Source of the DNA: Escherichia phage AV116
Length of the DNA stretch: 64,000 nt
Direction: 5' to 3' (one strand)
Sequence record: OR352946.1
Under the pieces are notes generated by a model that was not told the origin of the DNA, searched no databases, and was given only the letters and a program-made list of their open reading frames with translations. Position numbers and translations under genes: made by a program. This document shows, in pieces, positions 2,345 through 32,770 of this stretch (positions within the stretch are counted from its first letter, which is position 1; the number at the start of each line of letters is the position of its first letter).

Positions 2345-4327
2345 ATGGCACTTCTCTCTCCGGGCGTTGAGCTCAAAGAAACTACCGTACAGAGTACTGT
2401 AGTTAATAACTCCACTGGTACTGCTGCCCTGGCTGGAAAATTCCAATGGGGACCTGCATTCCAGATTAAACAAATCACTGATGAAGTTGCATTGGTTGAT
2501 ATGTTTGGTACTCCTAATACGGATACAGCAGATTATTTCATGTCTGCTATGAACTTCCTTCAATATGGTAATGACCTTCGTGTCGTACGCGCAGTTGATC
2601 GTGATACTGCTAAGAACTCATCTCCTGTGGCAGGCAATATTGAATTCACAATCTCTGCTACTGGTAGTAACTATGCGGTTGGTGATAAAATTATCGTTAA
2701 GTATTTGACCGAAACTGTTGAAGCAGATGGTTATGTCACTTCAGTTGATGTCGATGGTAAAATTCTTAACATTTATATCCCAACCGGTAAAATTATTGCT
2801 CGTGCAAAAGAAATTAATGAATATCCGGCATTGGGTTCTAACTGGACCGCCGAAGTTGCCAGTTCTTCTTCTGGACTTTCTGGCGTTATTACAATTGGTT
2901 CTATCGTAACTGATTCGGGTATTCTGTTAACTGAAGTTGAAACTTCTGAAGAAGCTATTACTTCTCTAACTTTCCAAGAATCTATTAAAAAATATGGTGT
3001 CCCAGGCGTAGTTGCTCTTTATCCTGGTGAACTTGGCGACCAGCTCGAAATTGAAATCGTATCTAAAGCAGACTATGACAAAGGTGCTTCAGCCCAGTTA
3101 AAAATTTATCCTGATGGTGGTACTCGTGCATCTACTGCTAAAGCAATCTTTGGGTATGGCCCACAAACTGATGACCAATATGCAATTATCGTTCGTCGTA
3201 ACGATGCTGTAGTTCAGAGCGTAGTTCTTTCTACTAAACGCGGTGAACGAGATATTTATGGTAGTAATATCTTTATTGATGATTTCTTTGCTAAAGGCGC
3301 AAGCAATTATATTTTCGCTACTGCACAAGGTTGGCCAAAAGGTTTCTCTGGCGTAATCAAACTGGGTGGCGGCTTATCATCTAATGAAACTGTTGACGCT
3401 GGTGATTTAATGGAAGCTTGGGATTTGTTTGCTGACCGCGAATCTGTTAATGCGCAGTTGTTTATTGCCGGTTCTTGTGCAGGTGAATCTTTAGAAGTTG
3501 CTTCTACAGTTCAGAAACATGTTGTAGCAATTGGTGATTCTCGCCAAGATTGCTTGGTTCTTTGCTCACCGCCACGTGCAACTATAGTCGGTATTCCTGT
3601 TAATCGTGCAGTTGATAATCTGGTTGATTGGCGTACTGCGTCAGGAACTTACACTGATAATAACTTTAATGTAAGTTCTACTTATGCCGCTATTGACGGT
3701 AACTATAAATATCAATATGACAAATATAATGATGTGAATCGTTGGGTTCCATTAGCTGCTGATATTGCTGGTCTTTGTGCTCGCACAGACAATATTTCTC
3801 AGCCTTGGATGTCTCCTGCCGGTTATAACCGTGGACAAATTCTTAACGTTATTAAGCTTGCAATTGAAACTCGCCAAGCGCAGCGTGATCGTTTGTACCA
3901 GGAAGCTATTAACCCTGTTACTGGTACCGGTGGTGATGGGTATGTTCTGTACGGTGATAAAACTGCCACTTCTGTTCCTTCACCATTTGACCGTATTAAC
4001 GTTCGTCGTTTGTTCAATATGGTTAAAACGAACATTGGTTCAGCATCCAAATATCGCCTGTTTGAATTGAACAACGCATTTACCCGTTCTTCTTTCCGTA
4101 CAGAGACTTCTCAATATCTACAGGGTATTAAAGCTCTCGGTGGTGTATATAACTTTAAAGTTGTTTGTGATACTACCAATAACACCCCAGCAGTTATCGA
4201 CCGTAATGAATTTGTAGCTACTTTCTACTTACAACCTGCAAGATCGATAAATTATATTACGTTGAACTTTGTAGCAACAGCAACGGGTGCCGATTTCGAC
4301 GAACTAATTGGTGCTGTAGGTGCCTAA
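2345..4327 (+). CDS. 18: tail sheath protein gp18
   Basis: 660 aa, position after terminase and before tail tube; T4 gp18-like sequence. Confidence 0.95.
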   Translation: MALLSPGVELKETTVQSTVVNNSTGTAALAGKFQWGPAFQIKQITDEVALVDMFGTPNTDTADYFMSAMNFLQYGNDLRVVRAVDRDTAKNSSPVAGNIEFTISATGSNYAVGDKIIVKYLTETVEADGYVTSVDVDGKILNIYIPTGKIIARAKEINEYPALGSNWTAEVASSSSGLSGVITIGSIVTDSGILLTEVETSEEAITSLTFQESIKKYGVPGVVALYPGELGDQLEIEIVSKADYDKGASAQLKIYPDGGTRASTAKAIFGYGPQTDDQYAIIVRRNDAVVQSVVLSTKRGERDIYGSNIFIDDFFAKGASNYIFATAQGWPKGFSGVIKLGGGLSSNETVDAGDLMEAWDLFADRESVNAQLFIAGSCAGESLEVASTVQKHVVAIGDSRQDCLVLCSPPRATIVGIPVNRAVDNLVDWRTASGTYTDNNFNVSSTYAAIDGNYKYQYDKYNDVNRWVPLAADIAGLCARTDNISQPWMSPAGYNRGQILNVIKLAIETRQAQRDRLYQEAINPVTGTGGDGYVLYGDKTATSVPSPFDRINVRRLFNMVKTNIGSASKYRLFELNNAFTRSSFRTETSQYLQGIKALGGVYNFKVVCDTTNNTPAVIDRNEFVATFYLQPARSINYITLNFVATATGADFDELIGAVGA

Positions 4328-4359
4328 TAAGACGCCTGATGGGCTATTTCGGTAGCCCA

Positions 4360-4367
4360 TATAAATA
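4360..4367 (+). promoter_or_regulatory. late promoter TATAAATA for gene 19
   Basis: TATAAATA immediately after a GGGCTA..TAGCCC stem-loop that follows the gene 18 stop. Confidence 0.65.
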
Positions 4368-4439
4368 TACTATATCGTTTAAAAATTAATTCTATGGGCA
4401 TCCGGTTAATCCTAAGCCCATATTACTACAGAGGCTAAT

Positions 4440-4931
4440 ATGTTTGTAGATGACGTAACTCGTGCCTTCGAATCAGGTGATTTCGCTCGCCCTAACCTGT
4501 TCGAAGTAGAAATCTCTTATCTTGGGCAAAACTTTAGCTTCCAGTGTCGTGCTACGGCTCTTCCTGCTGCGATCGTTGAAAAGGTTCCTGTTTCTTATAT
4601 GAACCGTAAAATTAACGTGGCCGGTGATCGTACATTTGATGATTGGACTATTACAGTAATGAACGATGATGCTCATAGCATTCGTCAGAAATTTGTTGAT
4701 TGGCAAGGTATTGCAGCAGGACAAGGTAATGAAATTACCGGTGGTAAACCTGCTGAATATAAAAAGTCTGCTATCGTTCGTCAATTTGCTCGTGATGCTA
4801 AAACGGTCACTAAAGAAGTTGAAATTGTCGGCTTGTGGCCTACTAACGTTGGCGAAGTATCTCTTGACTGGGACAGCAATAACGAGATTGAAACGTTCGA
4901 AGTAACTCTTGCTCTTGATTGGTGGGAATAA
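4440..4931 (+). CDS. 19: tail tube protein gp19
   Basis: 163 aa, T4 gp19 size and position. Confidence 0.95.
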   Translation: MFVDDVTRAFESGDFARPNLFEVEISYLGQNFSFQCRATALPAAIVEKVPVSYMNRKINVAGDRTFDDWTITVMNDDAHSIRQKFVDWQGIAAGQGNEITGGKPAEYKKSAIVRQFARDAKTVTKEVEIVGLWPTNVGEVSLDWDSNNEIETFEVTLALDWWE

Positions 4932-26676: not shown

Positions 26677-26706
26677 ATAGTATCACACATCCATGTGCTT
26701 GTAAAC
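26677..26706 (-). promoter_or_regulatory. early promoter GTTTAC-N18-TACTAT
   Basis: -35 overlaps the alt stop codon; drives the 97-aa ORF. Confidence 0.5.
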
Positions 26707-28793
26707 TATCCTTGAACAAATTTAAACGGAACCGATTCTAAATCCATTAAAGATGCTAACAGTTTCAATCCTTTAGGAGCACTAGTTTTTTCTACAAATG
26801 AGGAGAACGATACCGGCTCATCTGATTCGATTTCACCCATCATAGCAACCACCTCGCCTGTTTCCATGAGAACATCACCATCGTAAATGACAGCTTCGTC
26901 CAACTGGTCTGAGGACATGACTTCAGCTTGAATAAATTTAAGGTTGGATTCTAAACCTGCACCAGTGTCAGATGACGCATCTGTAATTTTATTTATCTGC
27001 AAGAGAATGCCTCTAGGCAAAATAATTTCTTGCTCATTAGGGTGATTACTCAACTGTCCTGGATAAATCACGTTAACTTTATGAGCGCCATCAATAGCCC
27101 ATCCAACGTTAACACGGATTTGTTCTGGTGCATGCATAGCTGTTCTTACTTGACTAGGAGAAATAGTAACACCTTCGTCATTATTGTCAATGTTAAGCTC
27201 TTTGCGAACTTCTTCAGGAGCAAGTCCAAGGGCAACGTTCTCTTTAAACCCACCGAAAATAATAGGAGCTAGTGAAGTGGAAACATAGTTTCTGAAGTAG
27301 AATACCTTATTTTTAACCATTGCTTCGTAAATAGGCATTCTGATAGACTGAGCTCTATATAACGTTAGTCCTTCAGGTAAACGGTCTCCATTTAAAAACG
27401 CCGAATCAAGACCATCAATAGCGCGTTTAACTTCATCTTCATCCGCAACATCGTAAAAATCTGGTTTATAACGACCTAACAACATATTATTGATATCGGT
27501 ATACGCAGAAGAGGCATATTCACGAATAGCTCGTTTTTCAGCAACAGAGTATTGTTTAGGGTCACGATTCATTGTTATATTAAAGGTGCCTCTAGCCGAT
27601 TCTCGTGCATAAGTATACATCACATTAGACAAGAACGCTGATTTACGTTGTTTCCAAGTTTTTTCAGATACTTCAGCTAAAACGTCGTCAGCCAGTTGGA
27701 AATTATCTCGTCTAAAATCTTCAAACCATTCGTCTCTAATAGAGTCTGCAATTTCATTTGCAGCTTCAACAAAAGCAGCTAATGCTTTAACAGATGTTGT
27801 TTTTTCGGTTTTAATTTTCTTAGCAAACTTTTCTAAAGTTGGCTTAATAACACTACCATAAGAAACTTCATCAGCAAATCTAAAGGATTCATCAATACGA
27901 TTATAAATCTTATTTTCGATATCAGCAACTAAAGTGCCTTTTGCTGTGGACGATGCTTGGGCTAGTACGATTTCATATGCTTCAGGAAGTAATTCGGCCG
28001 TAGCCGGGCCACTAACTTCTTTAGCAGAATTTTCGTATTTCTGGAATAACTCACCTTCTTGACGGTCAGCTTCTAAAGATTGACTTGCTGCAATAGCACG
28101 ACGAGAAATTTTAGTGCGAGCAATAACAGGCTTATCTTTACGTTTTTCTTCTACCGCGGCAATAGAACCAGCGATAGCCGTTTCTTTGGTGACCTTTTCA
28201 CCGGTCTTTTTACTCACATAAACTTCGCCAACATCAGAATCTACTTTCGTGTACAACTCTGTGTTAATGTTAGGGATGCCTTTAATATCTTCAATGTTGG
28301 CATTTTTACGAACCATCATCACATAGGTGTGTTTACCTGTGAATTGATACATTGCCGACAATACTTTAAAACGACCACCAGTTTTAGTAGAAACTAAACG
28401 AGCAAGAAGAGTTTGAAGTTGTTGTCCACGTCCTTTCAATTTCTTGGTAGGGAATCGGAACAGAACTGCATCCATACGAAGAGCTTTAACCTGTTCATAT
28501 ACTGTATTGAAAATAGTGTTGATTGCATCAATAGGAGCAGGACCAAGGCCATTTTTCAATTCAGCGAGATTACCCTTTTCAGACAGACTCATAATAACAA
28601 CATGAGCATATTTGTCGCCAAGTTTAACTTGTTTTACAGCATCGCCTTCAGAAAGGTAAGAGAATAAGCGAACTACGATGTTTGTATCGATATCACCAAT
28701 TTTCCAGACTTGTGGAACTTTAGCTTTAGGGTTCAAATTGACGACAGGAAGACTGCCTTCAGATTCAAACACTTCATTTAATTGTTCAGACAT
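26706..28793 (-). CDS. alt: Alt ADP-ribosyltransferase (virion-packaged)
   Basis: 695 aa ORF in the T4 alt position between gene 54 and ligase; size near T4 Alt. Confidence 0.85.
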   Translation of the reverse strand: MSEQLNEVFESEGSLPVVNLNPKAKVPQVWKIGDIDTNIVVRLFSYLSEGDAVKQVKLGDKYAHVVIMSLSEKGNLAELKNGLGPAPIDAINTIFNTVYEQVKALRMDAVLFRFPTKKLKGRGQQLQTLLARLVSTKTGGRFKVLSAMYQFTGKHTYVMMVRKNANIEDIKGIPNINTELYTKVDSDVGEVYVSKKTGEKVTKETAIAGSIAAVEEKRKDKPVIARTKISRRAIAASQSLEADRQEGELFQKYENSAKEVSGPATAELLPEAYEIVLAQASSTAKGTLVADIENKIYNRIDESFRFADEVSYGSVIKPTLEKFAKKIKTEKTTSVKALAAFVEAANEIADSIRDEWFEDFRRDNFQLADDVLAEVSEKTWKQRKSAFLSNVMYTYARESARGTFNITMNRDPKQYSVAEKRAIREYASSAYTDINNMLLGRYKPDFYDVADEDEVKRAIDGLDSAFLNGDRLPEGLTLYRAQSIRMPIYEAMVKNKVFYFRNYVSTSLAPIIFGGFKENVALGLAPEEVRKELNIDNNDEGVTISPSQVRTAMHAPEQIRVNVGWAIDGAHKVNVIYPGQLSNHPNEQEIILPRGILLQINKITDASSDTGAGLESNLKFIQAEVMSSDQLDEAVIYDGDVLMETGEVVAMMGEIESDEPVSFSSFVEKTSAPKGLKLLASLMDLESVPFKFVQG

Positions 28794-28849: not shown

Positions 28850-29037
28850 TAATCCACAATCGGAAGCAAAGTACGATAAACTTCAAAATTAGAGCCTTTT
28901 TCGTACTTATCGAAATTGTCCATAAAAATATGATAGGAATCGTTATTAGGAAAATCTAATATAATCTGAGAGCAAGAGGTGGAAACATCTCCACCATCCT
29001 TCTTAGCTACAATAACTGTTTCTAAATAAGCTTTCAT
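28849..29037 (-). CDS. small hypothetical protein (62 aa)
   Basis: ATG at 29037 overlaps the ligase stop (TAATG); the track extends it into ligase. Confidence 0.45.
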   Translation of the reverse strand: MKAYLETVIVAKKDGGDVSTSCSQIILDFPNNDSYHIFMDNFDKYEKGSNFEVYRTLLPIVD

Positions 29038-30530
29038 TATAAACCTGTCTGGGACCACGGTCCAAATACGTCTTCAAACGAATCCGCTTCTGTTTTATCA
29101 AAACGGAACCCTTTAATAATTGGGAGGAAAATACCTACAGTGCCTTCACGTCCTTTAGAATGAACCCAACCATTGCATTCACAATCAGCAATACGTCCAA
29201 TCAATTTACCTTCACGAGCTTCGGTCATTAATCGTTCACGGTCCAAATCATGTCGCTCATCTAAAGGAATAAGAACCTTTACACCATCAACTGTTTTATG
29301 AGTTGTATCTTTAAACCCTGAACCACAATCGGTTGTAATACGACGACAACGTGATACGAGTTCGACACCACCTAATTTGTTAGGGTCTTTAGAGTGTTCA
29401 TAGTATCCTACAACTTCTAAAGCGATATCAATAACTTCTTTAAATTTAATTAGGTTCTTAGAACGTTTGTTTTCCCAATATGAATCACGGTTTTTAAGGA
29501 TAATACCTTCAAGTCCTTGGTCAACATATTTTTTATAAACCACTTTAGCTTCGTCAAGATTACGAACTAACTGATTTTCAATTGGCTCAATTCGCTTAAA
29601 GCCTTCAGCCATATTTTCAAGAGCAGCAAAACGAACATCGTATTTCTGACCTTTAATTTTACCACCAGAATAGACTTCATCTAAAGGAACATAGTCCCAG
29701 GCTTGAAGAACCATACCTTCAGCTTCTTTAGGAGAAATAGTCCCTTGAAGAGATTTATTTGCTAAACCATTTGAAGTGCTACGGTCTGCAACCTGTACTT
29801 CTTCGGATTCTTCATTATCATCAAATAAGAACGACAGGTCATTTCCTGAGCTCACAGCCTTTTTAATATCAAATGAATGATAAACTAATTCACCGTCGAT
29901 TAAAACCCCATTAGGGTGTCTTTCACGAGCTTCTTTAGTCATTTCCATTAATTCATCTGCTAATAGGGTAAGACCATGATATTCGTTGCCGGCACGAGAA
30001 AAGAATTGAACACCATCATCGCGAACTTCAGCGAAACAACGAGCACCATCGGCTTTTAATTGAGCAAATGCAGGCCATTTAATATTTTTAGTAATCAATT
30101 TCTCATCATATGCAGATGCTAACATCTGTGGTTGCAATTGAATAAGTCCGGGCCACACCTTATTCGCGATAGACACTGAAGCACCTACTTCAAGGTCGCG
30201 CATCATTACACGACGAAGGACTTCTACATCATCAGGTTTACCGTCAGCGATATAACCCATGAGCTCTTTAATTGCAGCATTACCAGTGAGTTTACGAGTG
30301 GCTAATGTGAACTCAATAAAATCCAACATGTCATCTAATTCAAGAAGACCATATGCTTGGGACCTTTCACCTGGTCCTGGCCATTTCTTAATATAATACT
30401 GAATGCCACGTGCATACGTTAAACGATATACACGTTCAAGTAATTTGTTGTCCTTATTTTTCTTAAGGATTTCTTGTTTTGTTTTAGTAGAACCGATCGC
30501 AGCTATTTGGTTTAAAATATCTAAAATCAT
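29037..30530 (-). CDS. 30: ATP-dependent DNA ligase gp30
   Basis: 497 aa; adenylation motif KADGAR; T4 DNA ligase-like. Confidence 0.95.
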   Translation of the reverse strand: MILDILNQIAAIGSTKTKQEILKKNKDNKLLERVYRLTYARGIQYYIKKWPGPGERSQAYGLLELDDMLDFIEFTLATRKLTGNAAIKELMGYIADGKPDDVEVLRRVMMRDLEVGASVSIANKVWPGLIQLQPQMLASAYDEKLITKNIKWPAFAQLKADGARCFAEVRDDGVQFFSRAGNEYHGLTLLADELMEMTKEARERHPNGVLIDGELVYHSFDIKKAVSSGNDLSFLFDDNEESEEVQVADRSTSNGLANKSLQGTISPKEAEGMVLQAWDYVPLDEVYSGGKIKGQKYDVRFAALENMAEGFKRIEPIENQLVRNLDEAKVVYKKYVDQGLEGIILKNRDSYWENKRSKNLIKFKEVIDIALEVVGYYEHSKDPNKLGGVELVSRCRRITTDCGSGFKDTTHKTVDGVKVLIPLDERHDLDRERLMTEAREGKLIGRIADCECNGWVHSKGREGTVGIFLPIIKGFRFDKTEADSFEDVFGPWSQTGL

Positions 30531-30796: not shown

Positions 30797-30805
30797 AATT
30801 ATCCC

Positions 30806-31621
30806 TTAACAATTTATAGACCAAGTCCATTTAGACGAATCTAAAGGAAAGTTTTGAATCGTCCACCATGGCTGCATATTGGTTGGTCCTGGGGTTCGCC
30901 AGGTATACGGATTCGACGGACCGCCAATTTGATTAGGCCATGCACCTGGACTTGTTGCACCAGATTCTTTAAGCAAATCCGCCAATCGTTTTAAAAGGTC
31001 TTCACGATCTGAATCTGAATTATGCTCGGGTGGAACCAAACGAGATTCAATATCATCCCACGTGTGTACACGTTGTGCAGTGCGAGGAATATCATCACGT
31101 TCACCACGAGCCAACCAATAAATCGGTACATTAAGAATTTCTGCCGCATGGTCACAATGATGAGCTAAATCGTCAACGTAACAAATCACGTTATATTTTG
31201 TTTTAGCTAGTTCAAATAATTGTTCCTTTGACGAATCATGACCACACATCATTACTTCAGAAAAAGCGCCTGGGAACAAAGCATTCAAATTAAATTGTCT
31301 ATTCAATCGAGCATCAATTGAATCACCTAGCGCCGTCACGGCTACAAAATTATAGTCTTCTTTTAGTTTATTGATAACTCGAAGAGCATCCGAATAAGGC
31401 GCTAAGTAACGAATAAAATCAGAGCGATTATATTTTTCTATTAATTGTTTACCAAGGTTATCGTCGGTATTGAATAGTTTACCAGGAGAAATAAATTTTT
31501 CGTCCTGGATCATTTTTAAAATATGTTCTAATGGAAGATTATATTTTTGGGCAAAATAAGGAAGTCCAGATTGCCAGCTTAAACATACACCATCAATATC
31601 AGTCAAAATAGTAGGCTTCAT
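30806..31621 (-). CDS. HAD-like hydrolase (30.2 position) with Pro/Trp-rich C-terminal tail
   Basis: 271 aa; N-terminal DIDGV (HAD motif I) and later VDDLAHH; last about 60 aa unusually P/W/G-rich. Confidence 0.65.
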   Translation of the reverse strand: MKPTILTDIDGVCLSWQSGLPYFAQKYNLPLEHILKMIQDEKFISPGKLFNTDDNLGKQLIEKYNRSDFIRYLAPYSDALRVINKLKEDYNFVAVTALGDSIDARLNRQFNLNALFPGAFSEVMMCGHDSSKEQLFELAKTKYNVICYVDDLAHHCDHAAEILNVPIYWLARGERDDIPRTAQRVHTWDDIESRLVPPEHNSDSDREDLLKRLADLLKESGATSPGAWPNQIGGPSNPYTWRTPGPTNMQPWWTIQNFPLDSSKWTWSINC

Positions 31622-32085
31622 AAAGAGTCTCTTAATAGGTTTAACACATCAATAAATTCAGCTTCGGTTAGTATTGTATCATCTTTTGTTAGACCACTAG
31701 CCATGCTGTGCTTCAAAATTTTTCCTTTAGAGGCTTGTAAGGCATCACGAAACCCCTTGTTTTGGATCGCTGCTTCAAAATATGCATTTGTATATAATTC
31801 TTTCCACGCTTCAGAGTATCTTGAAAATGGAACTCCTAACCAGAAGAGAGTCCCATGGTCCTGAGCTCTTGCATAAGACCTTCCAGCTTGCTGTGCAGCC
31901 AGTCCTGACAGCCCAAATATACGTTTTTGTTGTTCAACATTTCTCACCTTACATCCTTGGAGAAATCCTTCAAGACCTCCGAATTGAATATCGTCCATAA
32001 CGAAAGGCCACCGGGCAAAATTACTTAATGCACATGACGGCCACTTAAAATTGCTTCTTATTTCTAATTCAGACATCTTTAACAC
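31618..32085 (-). CDS. NADAR/YbiA-like (DUF1768-type) protein
   Basis: 155 aa; LSNFARWPF resembles the FSNFAAWP motif of E. coli YbiA as I recall it, with similar spacing of later W/K/L positions; by-eye comparison only. Confidence 0.55.
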   Translation of the reverse strand: MLKMSELEIRSNFKWPSCALSNFARWPFVMDDIQFGGLEGFLQGCKVRNVEQQKRIFGLSGLAAQQAGRSYARAQDHGTLFWLGVPFSRYSEAWKELYTNAYFEAAIQNKGFRDALQASKGKILKHSMASGLTKDDTILTEAEFIDVLNLLRDSL

Positions 32086-32287
32086 TTATAATTTCAATAT
32101 CAGCCCAATGACCGTATCCAGGTATACGGTCTTCGATAGATAAATTTCCGTCATTTTTAGGCATTTTAATTGACGTAACGTATGGTTCTAGACGGTTTTC
32201 TGCATAATACGGAAAAACGTCTGTTACACGATAAGTAACTTCGATCATTTCTGTACCCAACAATTTCTGAATTAATTTCTTTAACAT
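32069..32287 (-). CDS. hypothetical protein (72 aa)
   Basis: ORF in 30.x block, tight spacing. Confidence 0.5.
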   Translation of the reverse strand: MLKKLIQKLLGTEMIEVTYRVTDVFPYYAENRLEPYVTSIKMPKNDGNLSIEDRIPGYGHWADIEIISVKDV

Positions 32288-32288
32288 A

Positions 32289-32483
32289 TTATCCTCGCTT
32301 TAAACATTTGATTACAGACAGTTCACCACCCATGCGAACGTCTTCAGTTCCATCGACCCATAGGACGGTGTAGGCTTCTTTAATAGTAGCATTACCTAAT
32401 TTAAAAGCAGGTAAAACCTTTGAAATCATACCAGGAATACCTATACCTTTTAACTGGACAGTTTGTGATAAGAATAGATGCAT
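32289..32483 (-). CDS. hypothetical protein (64 aa)
   Basis: ORF in 30.x block. Confidence 0.5.
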   Translation of the reverse strand: MHLFLSQTVQLKGIGIPGMISKVLPAFKLGNATIKEAYTVLWVDGTEDVRMGGELSVIKCLKRG

Positions 32484-32770
32484 TAGAACCTCATCTGAAA
32501 TCCGTGTGATTTAACATTACCGCCATAAATGTCAGAGGTATTGACTTCACGTGCGGCGCTAGGGTCGATGTTAATATCATGGTTGAGCTTAGTGATTGCT
32601 AAGGTGTCACGACCGTTAACAGTACGGAATTCTACCGGGCACACATCATCAGCATAAGCCTTAATGGATTCATGAGTAGGTTGTTTGTCGACAGGAACGT
32701 CTTTACCTGCTTTAGAGAAAACAACTTCACAGAAATTTTTACGGGTATCAAAATAAGTGGTCATAAACAT
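32483..32770 (-). CDS. hypothetical protein (95 aa)
   Basis: ATG with GAGGAAA SD directly after a hairpin. Confidence 0.55.
   Translation of the reverse strand: MFMTTYFDTRKNFCEVVFSKAGKDVPVDKQPTHESIKAYADDVCPVEFRTVNGRDTLAITKLNHDINIDPSAAREVNTSDIYGGNVKSHGFQMRF

Follow-up and report, generated by a model that had tools for sequence, protein, structure and literature searches.

The stretch of DNA analyzed in this study (64,000 nts of Escherichia phage AV116, record OR352946.1; hereafter the window) comes from a Tequatrovirus that is a close relative of Escherichia phages AV118 and AV115. The DNA surrounding the gene under study is 99.9% identical to both of these phages, and hundreds of Tequatrovirus records match it. 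An earlier note, made from the letters of the window alone, had drawn attention to a 155-aa ORF at positions 31618-32085, and the ORF list contains an ORF with exactly these coordinates, on the minus strand. The features of the locus, numbered along the window, are as follows:

26706-28793, minus strand: alt orthologue, 695 aa, an Alt-type ADP-ribosyltransferase (PF03496, E = 6e-28), 2.8 kb downstream of adfN
29037-30530, minus strand: DNA ligase, 497 aa (from the ORF list)
30806-31621, minus strand: gene 30.2 orthologue, 271 aa, a putative phosphatase/nucleotidase of HAD fold (PHROG 420, AlphaFold2 model, Foldseek)
31618-32085, minus strand: the 155-aa ORF with a GTG start (from the ORF list)
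31618-32076, minus strand: adfN (T4 gene 30.3 orthologue), 152 codons plus stop counted from the ATG, a predicted core-only NADAR-fold ADP-ribosylglycohydrolase
31624-31665, minus strand: C-terminal alpha-helix predicted by the model, residues 138-151; the last 27 residues of the protein are identical to T4
31708-31710, minus strand: His123 in the last beta-strand (residues 120-123 in the model); His in 75 of 75 sequences
31948-31971, minus strand: catalytic segment E36-G-F-L-Q-G-C-K43; E36 and K43 are invariant (n = 75) and the segment is identical in T4
32005-32025, minus strand: SNFARWP motif, residues 18-24 from the ATG; S18, N19, and F20 are invariant, and the motif aligns to SNFAAWP of YbiA
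32077-32085, minus strand: GTG-TTA-AAG, the three extra codons of the 155-aa ORF, inside the end of gene 30.4
32069-32287, minus strand: gene 30.4 orthologue, 72 aa (PHROG 2042, E = 2.3e-34; placed as in the T4 gene order)

The gene order of T4, namely alt, alt.1, 30 (DNA ligase), 30.1 (DUF3045), 30.2, 30.3, and 30.4, is reproduced at this locus, with adfN in its T4-type position between 30.4 and 30.2 and upstream of the ligase gene. The true start of adfN is probably the ATG at 32076, three codons after the GTG that opens the 155-aa ORF, giving a protein of 152 aa. This ATG was preferred over the GTG because the orthologues in T4 and RB51 are annotated from ATG, and the codons GTG-TTA-AAG probably lie outside the translated protein. 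At its start, adfN overlaps the stop codon of gene 30.4 by 8 nts (ATGTCTGA), exactly as in T4, and at its end the adfN stop codon and the ATG of gene 30.2 share the overlap ATGA, which is likewise present in T4. A scan of the region from 28.5 to 35.5 kb for promoters and terminators was uninformative (27 promoter-like sites, compared to 22.5 expected). In T4, an out-of-frame gene named 30.3' (75 aa) is also annotated inside 30.3. The corresponding frame in the window (31713-31940, minus strand) runs into a stop after 34 codons, which rules out 30.3' as a conserved part of the locus; since this frame is broken here and therefore not conserved, 30.3' is doubtful as a real gene.

Family searches placed the protein together with T4 gp30.3. 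It matches PF08010 (Phage_30_3, 'Bacteriophage protein GP30.3') over positions 1-138 of the 138 in the profile, with an E value of 2.8e-66 and a score of 222 bits (the cut-off, or gathering score, is 36 bits), and it also matches PHROG 652. T4 gp30.3 (NP_049816) is of equal length and shows 94% identity in a gapless alignment over 152 aa, while the RB51 protein is 93% and the AV115 protein 99.4% identical to AdfN of the window. Homologues were found by tblastn in 1510 phage records, mostly of Straboviridae with a few from elsewhere, and a dN/dS of 0.086 between adfN and its T4 counterpart points to strong purifying selection. Taken together, the profile score, the tblastn records, and the dN/dS ratio confirm that the ORF is far beyond chance, and on sequence grounds it is the orthologue of adfN (T4 gene 30.3). 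The same stretch is labelled 'hypothetical protein' in 15 of the 15 closest phage records listed, including AV118 and AV115; the orthologue in these records can be annotated as adfN.

The earlier note had compared the ORF by eye with the NADAR (YbiA) fold, citing an SNFARWP motif, and had named a PF08719 profile search and a comparison of predicted structures as ways to check this. The motif occupies residues 21-27 of the 155-aa ORF. When the single AdfN sequence was used as the query, no match to PF08719 (NADAR) was obtained even at E <= 1, and nothing was returned either by the NCBIfam search or by phmmer against PDB chains, which left PF08010 as the sole Pfam/NCBIfam/PDB match. At the level of the family, represented by an alignment of 75 full-length homologues, 32 of the 75 gp30.3 homologues match PF08719 (best E = 1.5e-7), and the profile of the gp30.3 family finds E. 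coli YbiA (2b3w) by HMMER with E = 0.0053. The resulting alignment brings SNFA-WP of AdfN onto SNFAAWP of YbiA and the E...K segment onto SEHYFQAQKF. The AlphaFold2 model of AdfN built from the family alignment (mean pLDDT 93, pTM 0.88) has the helical core with two small flanking sheets that characterizes the YbiA/NADAR fold, and it matches NADAR structures only, with 130-132 of 152 aa aligned. The NADAR fold of AdfN is therefore beyond reasonable doubt, in agreement with the earlier note. The family alignment and the structure were needed to recognize it, because single-sequence searches gave only PF08010. The profile check proposed in the note thus failed on the single sequence and succeeded on the family, and the lack of a significant profile hit, which the note had taken as a possible refutation, is a misleading sign for a single sequence, as AdfN belongs to a Pfam family of its own, PF08010.

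Multiple sequence alignment of the 75 homologues revealed that S18, N19, F20, E36, G37, F38, L39, Q40, K43, and H123 are invariant. Among these residues, E36 and K43 align to the Glu and Lys of YbiA and correspond to the pair that contacts ADP-ribose, and it has been reported that the E36A and K43A mutants impair T4 AdfN (PMC11825919). The residue in the last strand is known to differ between NADAR types, with His marking phage NADARs of the gp30.3 type, Glu those of the YbiA type, and Asp those of DarG1/BC4488 (PMC11125620). The allele of phage RB69 is frameshifted and lacks the C-terminal helix, RB69 is sensitive to DarTG1, and the helix is needed for full activity (PMC11825919); in AdfN of the window this helix is intact. 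With 152 aa and no N-terminal extension, AdfN consists of the core only, and phage NADAR has been described as a bare core domain (PMC12945103).

We also compared AdfN of the window with related known systems. It resembles T4 AdfN in gene order, in its overlapping start and stop codons, in E36, K43, and H123, and in the C-terminal helix, and differs from it by nine substitutions (R11K, Q22R, G29D, K45R, R51K, R74H, P89E, V120I, and I125M) as well as by the broken internal frame 30.3'. The DarG1 antitoxin (DarT1-linked BC4488 NADAR; Geobacter lovleyi, PDB 8bat) has an Asp in its last strand, a length of 219 aa that includes an N-terminal extension, and darT1 as its neighbor. None of these is found in AdfN, which has His123 at this position, lacks the extension, and is flanked by 30.4 and the HAD-fold 30.2; moreover, DarG1 is not replaceable by T4 gp30.3 in uninfected cells. 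E. coli YbiA (PDB 2b3w; PF08719 type) shows ~20% identity, and the Glu of the YbiA type is replaced by His throughout the alignment (75/75). Proteins of the YbiA type have a role in riboflavin metabolism and can also remove C-ADPr, an activity that the T4 NADAR lacks. The NADAR of Phytophthora nicotianae (PDB 8bau, in complex with ADP-ribose) is a eukaryotic protein of 189 aa with 18% identity and a catalytic chemistry of the Glu type. Two other anti-DarT factors of T4 deserve comparison: AdfM (T4 Tk.4, a macrodomain) is also an orphan antitoxin-like hydrolase but targets DarTG2 (thymidine-ADPr), and AdfA (gp61.2) binds the toxin. Their folds are unrelated to that of AdfN, and neither gene is located at the adfN locus.

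The fold, activity, and counter-defence role of gp30.3/AdfN are already known from work published in 2023-2025. Johannesman et al. [quoted passage not shown] Deletions in T2 and T4 showed that adfN is necessary against DarTG1, and the rescue of RB69 showed that it is sufficient; purified AdfN(T4) strips ADP-ribose from DarT1-modified DNA, does not bind DarT1, does not counter DarTG2, and is fully active only during T-even infection, which implies a further phage factor (PMC11825919). Independent work established that T4 gp30.3 hydrolyses guanosine-ADPr and not thymidine-ADPr in vitro and that it fails to rescue uninfected cells from DarT1 (PMC11125620), while cytidine-ADPr is not removed by the T4 NADAR (PMC12945103). 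A transposon screen of T4 found adfN to be essential on a DarTG1 host but not on K-12, and adfN was the only gene it reported on DarTG1 (bioRxiv 10.1101/2025.11.20.689424). The mechanism in T4 is not fully understood, since AdfN(T4) fails in uninfected cells and needs a T-even factor. The counter-defence role put forward by the earlier note, i.e., removal of ADP-ribose from nucleic acid against DarT systems, has accordingly been demonstrated for a protein that is 94% identical to the one encoded here (PMC11825919; PMC11125620; bioRxiv 10.1101/2025.11.20.689424), and the experiments it suggested (structure comparison, assays on ADP-ribosylated DNA, and plaque assays on DarT hosts) have already given positive results in the literature for the T4 orthologue.

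By orthology, at 94% identity, the allele in the window is very likely to act like T4 AdfN, in guanine de-ADP-ribosylation and against DarTG1 (probability roughly 0.93). Infection of a DarTG1 host would release the DarT1 toxin, which would ADP-ribosylate guanine bases of the phage DNA and block its replication. The E36/K43 pocket of AdfN would then bind the ADP-ribose, His123 presumably occupying the site where a catalytic Glu/Asp is usually found, and the enzyme would hydrolyse the bond between guanine and ADP-ribose, so that the DNA would be restored and replication could resume. AdfN would thus serve as a phage-borne orphan antitoxin. The intact adfN allele predicts that this phage is resistant to DarTG1-carrying E. 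coli, which is relevant to the choice of therapeutic phages.

The neighborhood of adfN was described in the earlier note as containing a HAD-like hydrolase next to the ORF and an Alt ADP-ribosyltransferase a few kb away, and both descriptions proved correct. Sequence signals for gp30.2 are weak and comprise a hit to HAD_2 below threshold (E = 0.02) and one to a deoxyribonucleotidase PDB chain (E = 0.76). The structural signal is clear: its AlphaFold2 model is confident for residues 1-220 (core pLDDT >90), every top Foldseek match is a HAD enzyme, with 5'(3')-deoxyribonucleotidases among them, and the HAD motif residues D8, D10, K132, D150, and D151 are invariant among homologues. The C-terminal tail of gp30.2 (~50 residues) is disordered (pLDDT <50) and rich in Pro and Trp, and its length varies among homologues. 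Tequatrovirus, Dhakavirus, Tegunavirus, and Lazarusvirus share the order alt/ligase/30.2/30.3. A tblastn search for 30.2 homologues up to 4 kb from the gp30.3 homologue was negative for the Karamvirus, Tulanevirus, Vibrio D479, RSP15, and Kikimora loci, and in Wolf_ER13 and Brandy the annotated neighbors of the gp30.3 homologue are not obviously 30.2, as judged from annotation. None of the gp30.3 homologues in Karamvirus, Tulanevirus, and RSP15 lies close to alt. In four distant phages, the gp30.3/NADAR homologue is located inside a tRNA gene cluster, away from the ligase gene:

Positions 3995-4513 of locus L003: homologue in a tRNA cluster of RSP15 (Ralstonia phage)
Positions 4001-4450 of locus L007: homologue in a tRNA cluster of KKP_3262 (Enterobacter phage)
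Positions 4001-4450 of locus L008: homologue in a tRNA cluster of AhMtk13a (Aeromonas phage)
Positions 3001-3450 of locus L010: homologue in a tRNA cluster of Wolf_ER13 (Klebsiella phage)

Three of them are T4-like phages (Karamvirus, Tulanevirus, and the Klebsiella phage) and one belongs to Ackermannviridae. No 30.2 homologue was found by tblastn within 4 kb in three of these four loci, the statement for L010 being based on annotation only. Such placement could reflect an accessory-gene hotspot effect or hint at a role in RNA/tRNA.

Several other readings were weighed against an anti-DarTG1 role of an active AdfN. Eight of the substitutions between T4 and the window fall at variable positions; the exception is G29D (31990-31992), which lies in a turn and could have weakened or inactivated the allele. 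The glycine at this position is near-invariant (69 of 75 homologues), and YbiA too has DG there. Nevertheless, five other full-length members carry D, N, or E at position 29, the model is confident around it (pLDDT 97 for residues 21-30), the dN/dS speaks for strong purifying selection, and both the C-terminal helix and every catalytic residue are intact. In view of the D, N, or E in other members and the strongly purifying selection, loss of activity through G29D is very unlikely, and the change is probably tolerated. A different proposal concerns the factor that AdfN(T4) needs for full activity in T-even infection: gp30.2, as a translationally coupled HAD phosphatase of deoxyribonucleotidase-like type whose DxD, K, and DD motifs are intact, might be this factor, in which case 30.3 and 30.2 would form a two-enzyme module for DNA de-ADP-ribosylation and gp30.2 might process the released ADP-ribose/phosphoribose or act at the lesion. 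We retain this idea at a very low probability, because the adjacency is lost in distant loci and the screen reports adfN alone; on the same observations, 30.2 was rejected as an obligate partner of 30.3. Even harder to believe is that AdfN is a YbiA-type housekeeping N-glycosidase of nucleotide or riboflavin intermediates that works with the HAD protein gp30.2, given that the YbiA-type Glu of the last strand is His in every gp30.3 member aligned, that the T4 protein acts on ADP-ribosylated DNA with a clear DarTG1 phenotype, and that 30.2 is missing near five distant gp30.3 homologues.

AdfN might also reverse or edit the ADP-ribosylation carried out by the phage's own transferases (Alt, ModA, and ModB), as adfN and the alt orthologue point in the same direction with 2.8 kb between them and the order of alt, ligase, 30.2, and 30.3 is common to the four genera named above. 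However, the annotated activity of Alt is mono-ADP-ribosylation of a protein, RNA polymerase, and its target residue is arginine, while the T4 NADAR is specific for guanosine-ADPr and inactive on T-ADPr and C-ADPr. In addition, the phage can do without adfN on E. coli K-12, a host in which Alt functions as usual, and the homologues in Karamvirus, Tulanevirus, and RSP15 are away from alt. This reading is therefore extremely unlikely, and a functional link between AdfN and Alt was rejected, with gene order as its sole support and substrate chemistry arguing against it. The functional tie to Alt or to the HAD protein gp30.2 that the earlier note derived from location is not upheld: it amounts to synteny, and Alt modifies proteins whereas the phage NADAR is guanine-specific. 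Somewhat more room is left for a broader or different substrate range, with guanosine-ADPr in RNA (mRNA/tRNA) or other defences that ADP-ribosylate nucleic acids being addressed by AdfN and DarTG1 as only one target, which we regard as possible though unlikely. NADARs from all four families have been reported to remove RNA G-ADPr (PMC12945103), the authors who described AdfN proposed other DNA/RNA ADP-ribosylating defences as its targets (PMC11825919), and gp30.3 homologues are embedded in the tRNA gene clusters of four distant phages. On the other hand, DarTG1 is the only in vivo phenotype known for AdfN, and adfN of the window sits in the ligase block and not near tRNAs; the location in tRNA clusters may also mean nothing, as the tRNA regions of large phages are general hotspots of accessory genes.

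Comparison with T4 at the nucleotide level also showed uneven divergence along the locus. The ligase of the window (497 aa, compared to 487 aa in T4) contains an acidic stretch (DDNEESEEVQVAD) and shows ~67% nucleotide identity, being far more diverged than adfN. Nucleotide identity to T4 is only 49-78% in the flanking genes 30.2 and 30.4, and at the protein level gp30.2 reaches only 70-73% identity, compared to 94% for AdfN. Within this region, adfN forms an island of 85-98% nucleotide identity (31500-32100, compared to the flanks 30800-31500 and 32100-32700), which suggests either that T-even phages have exchanged adfN in mosaic fashion or that the gene is unusually strongly constrained.
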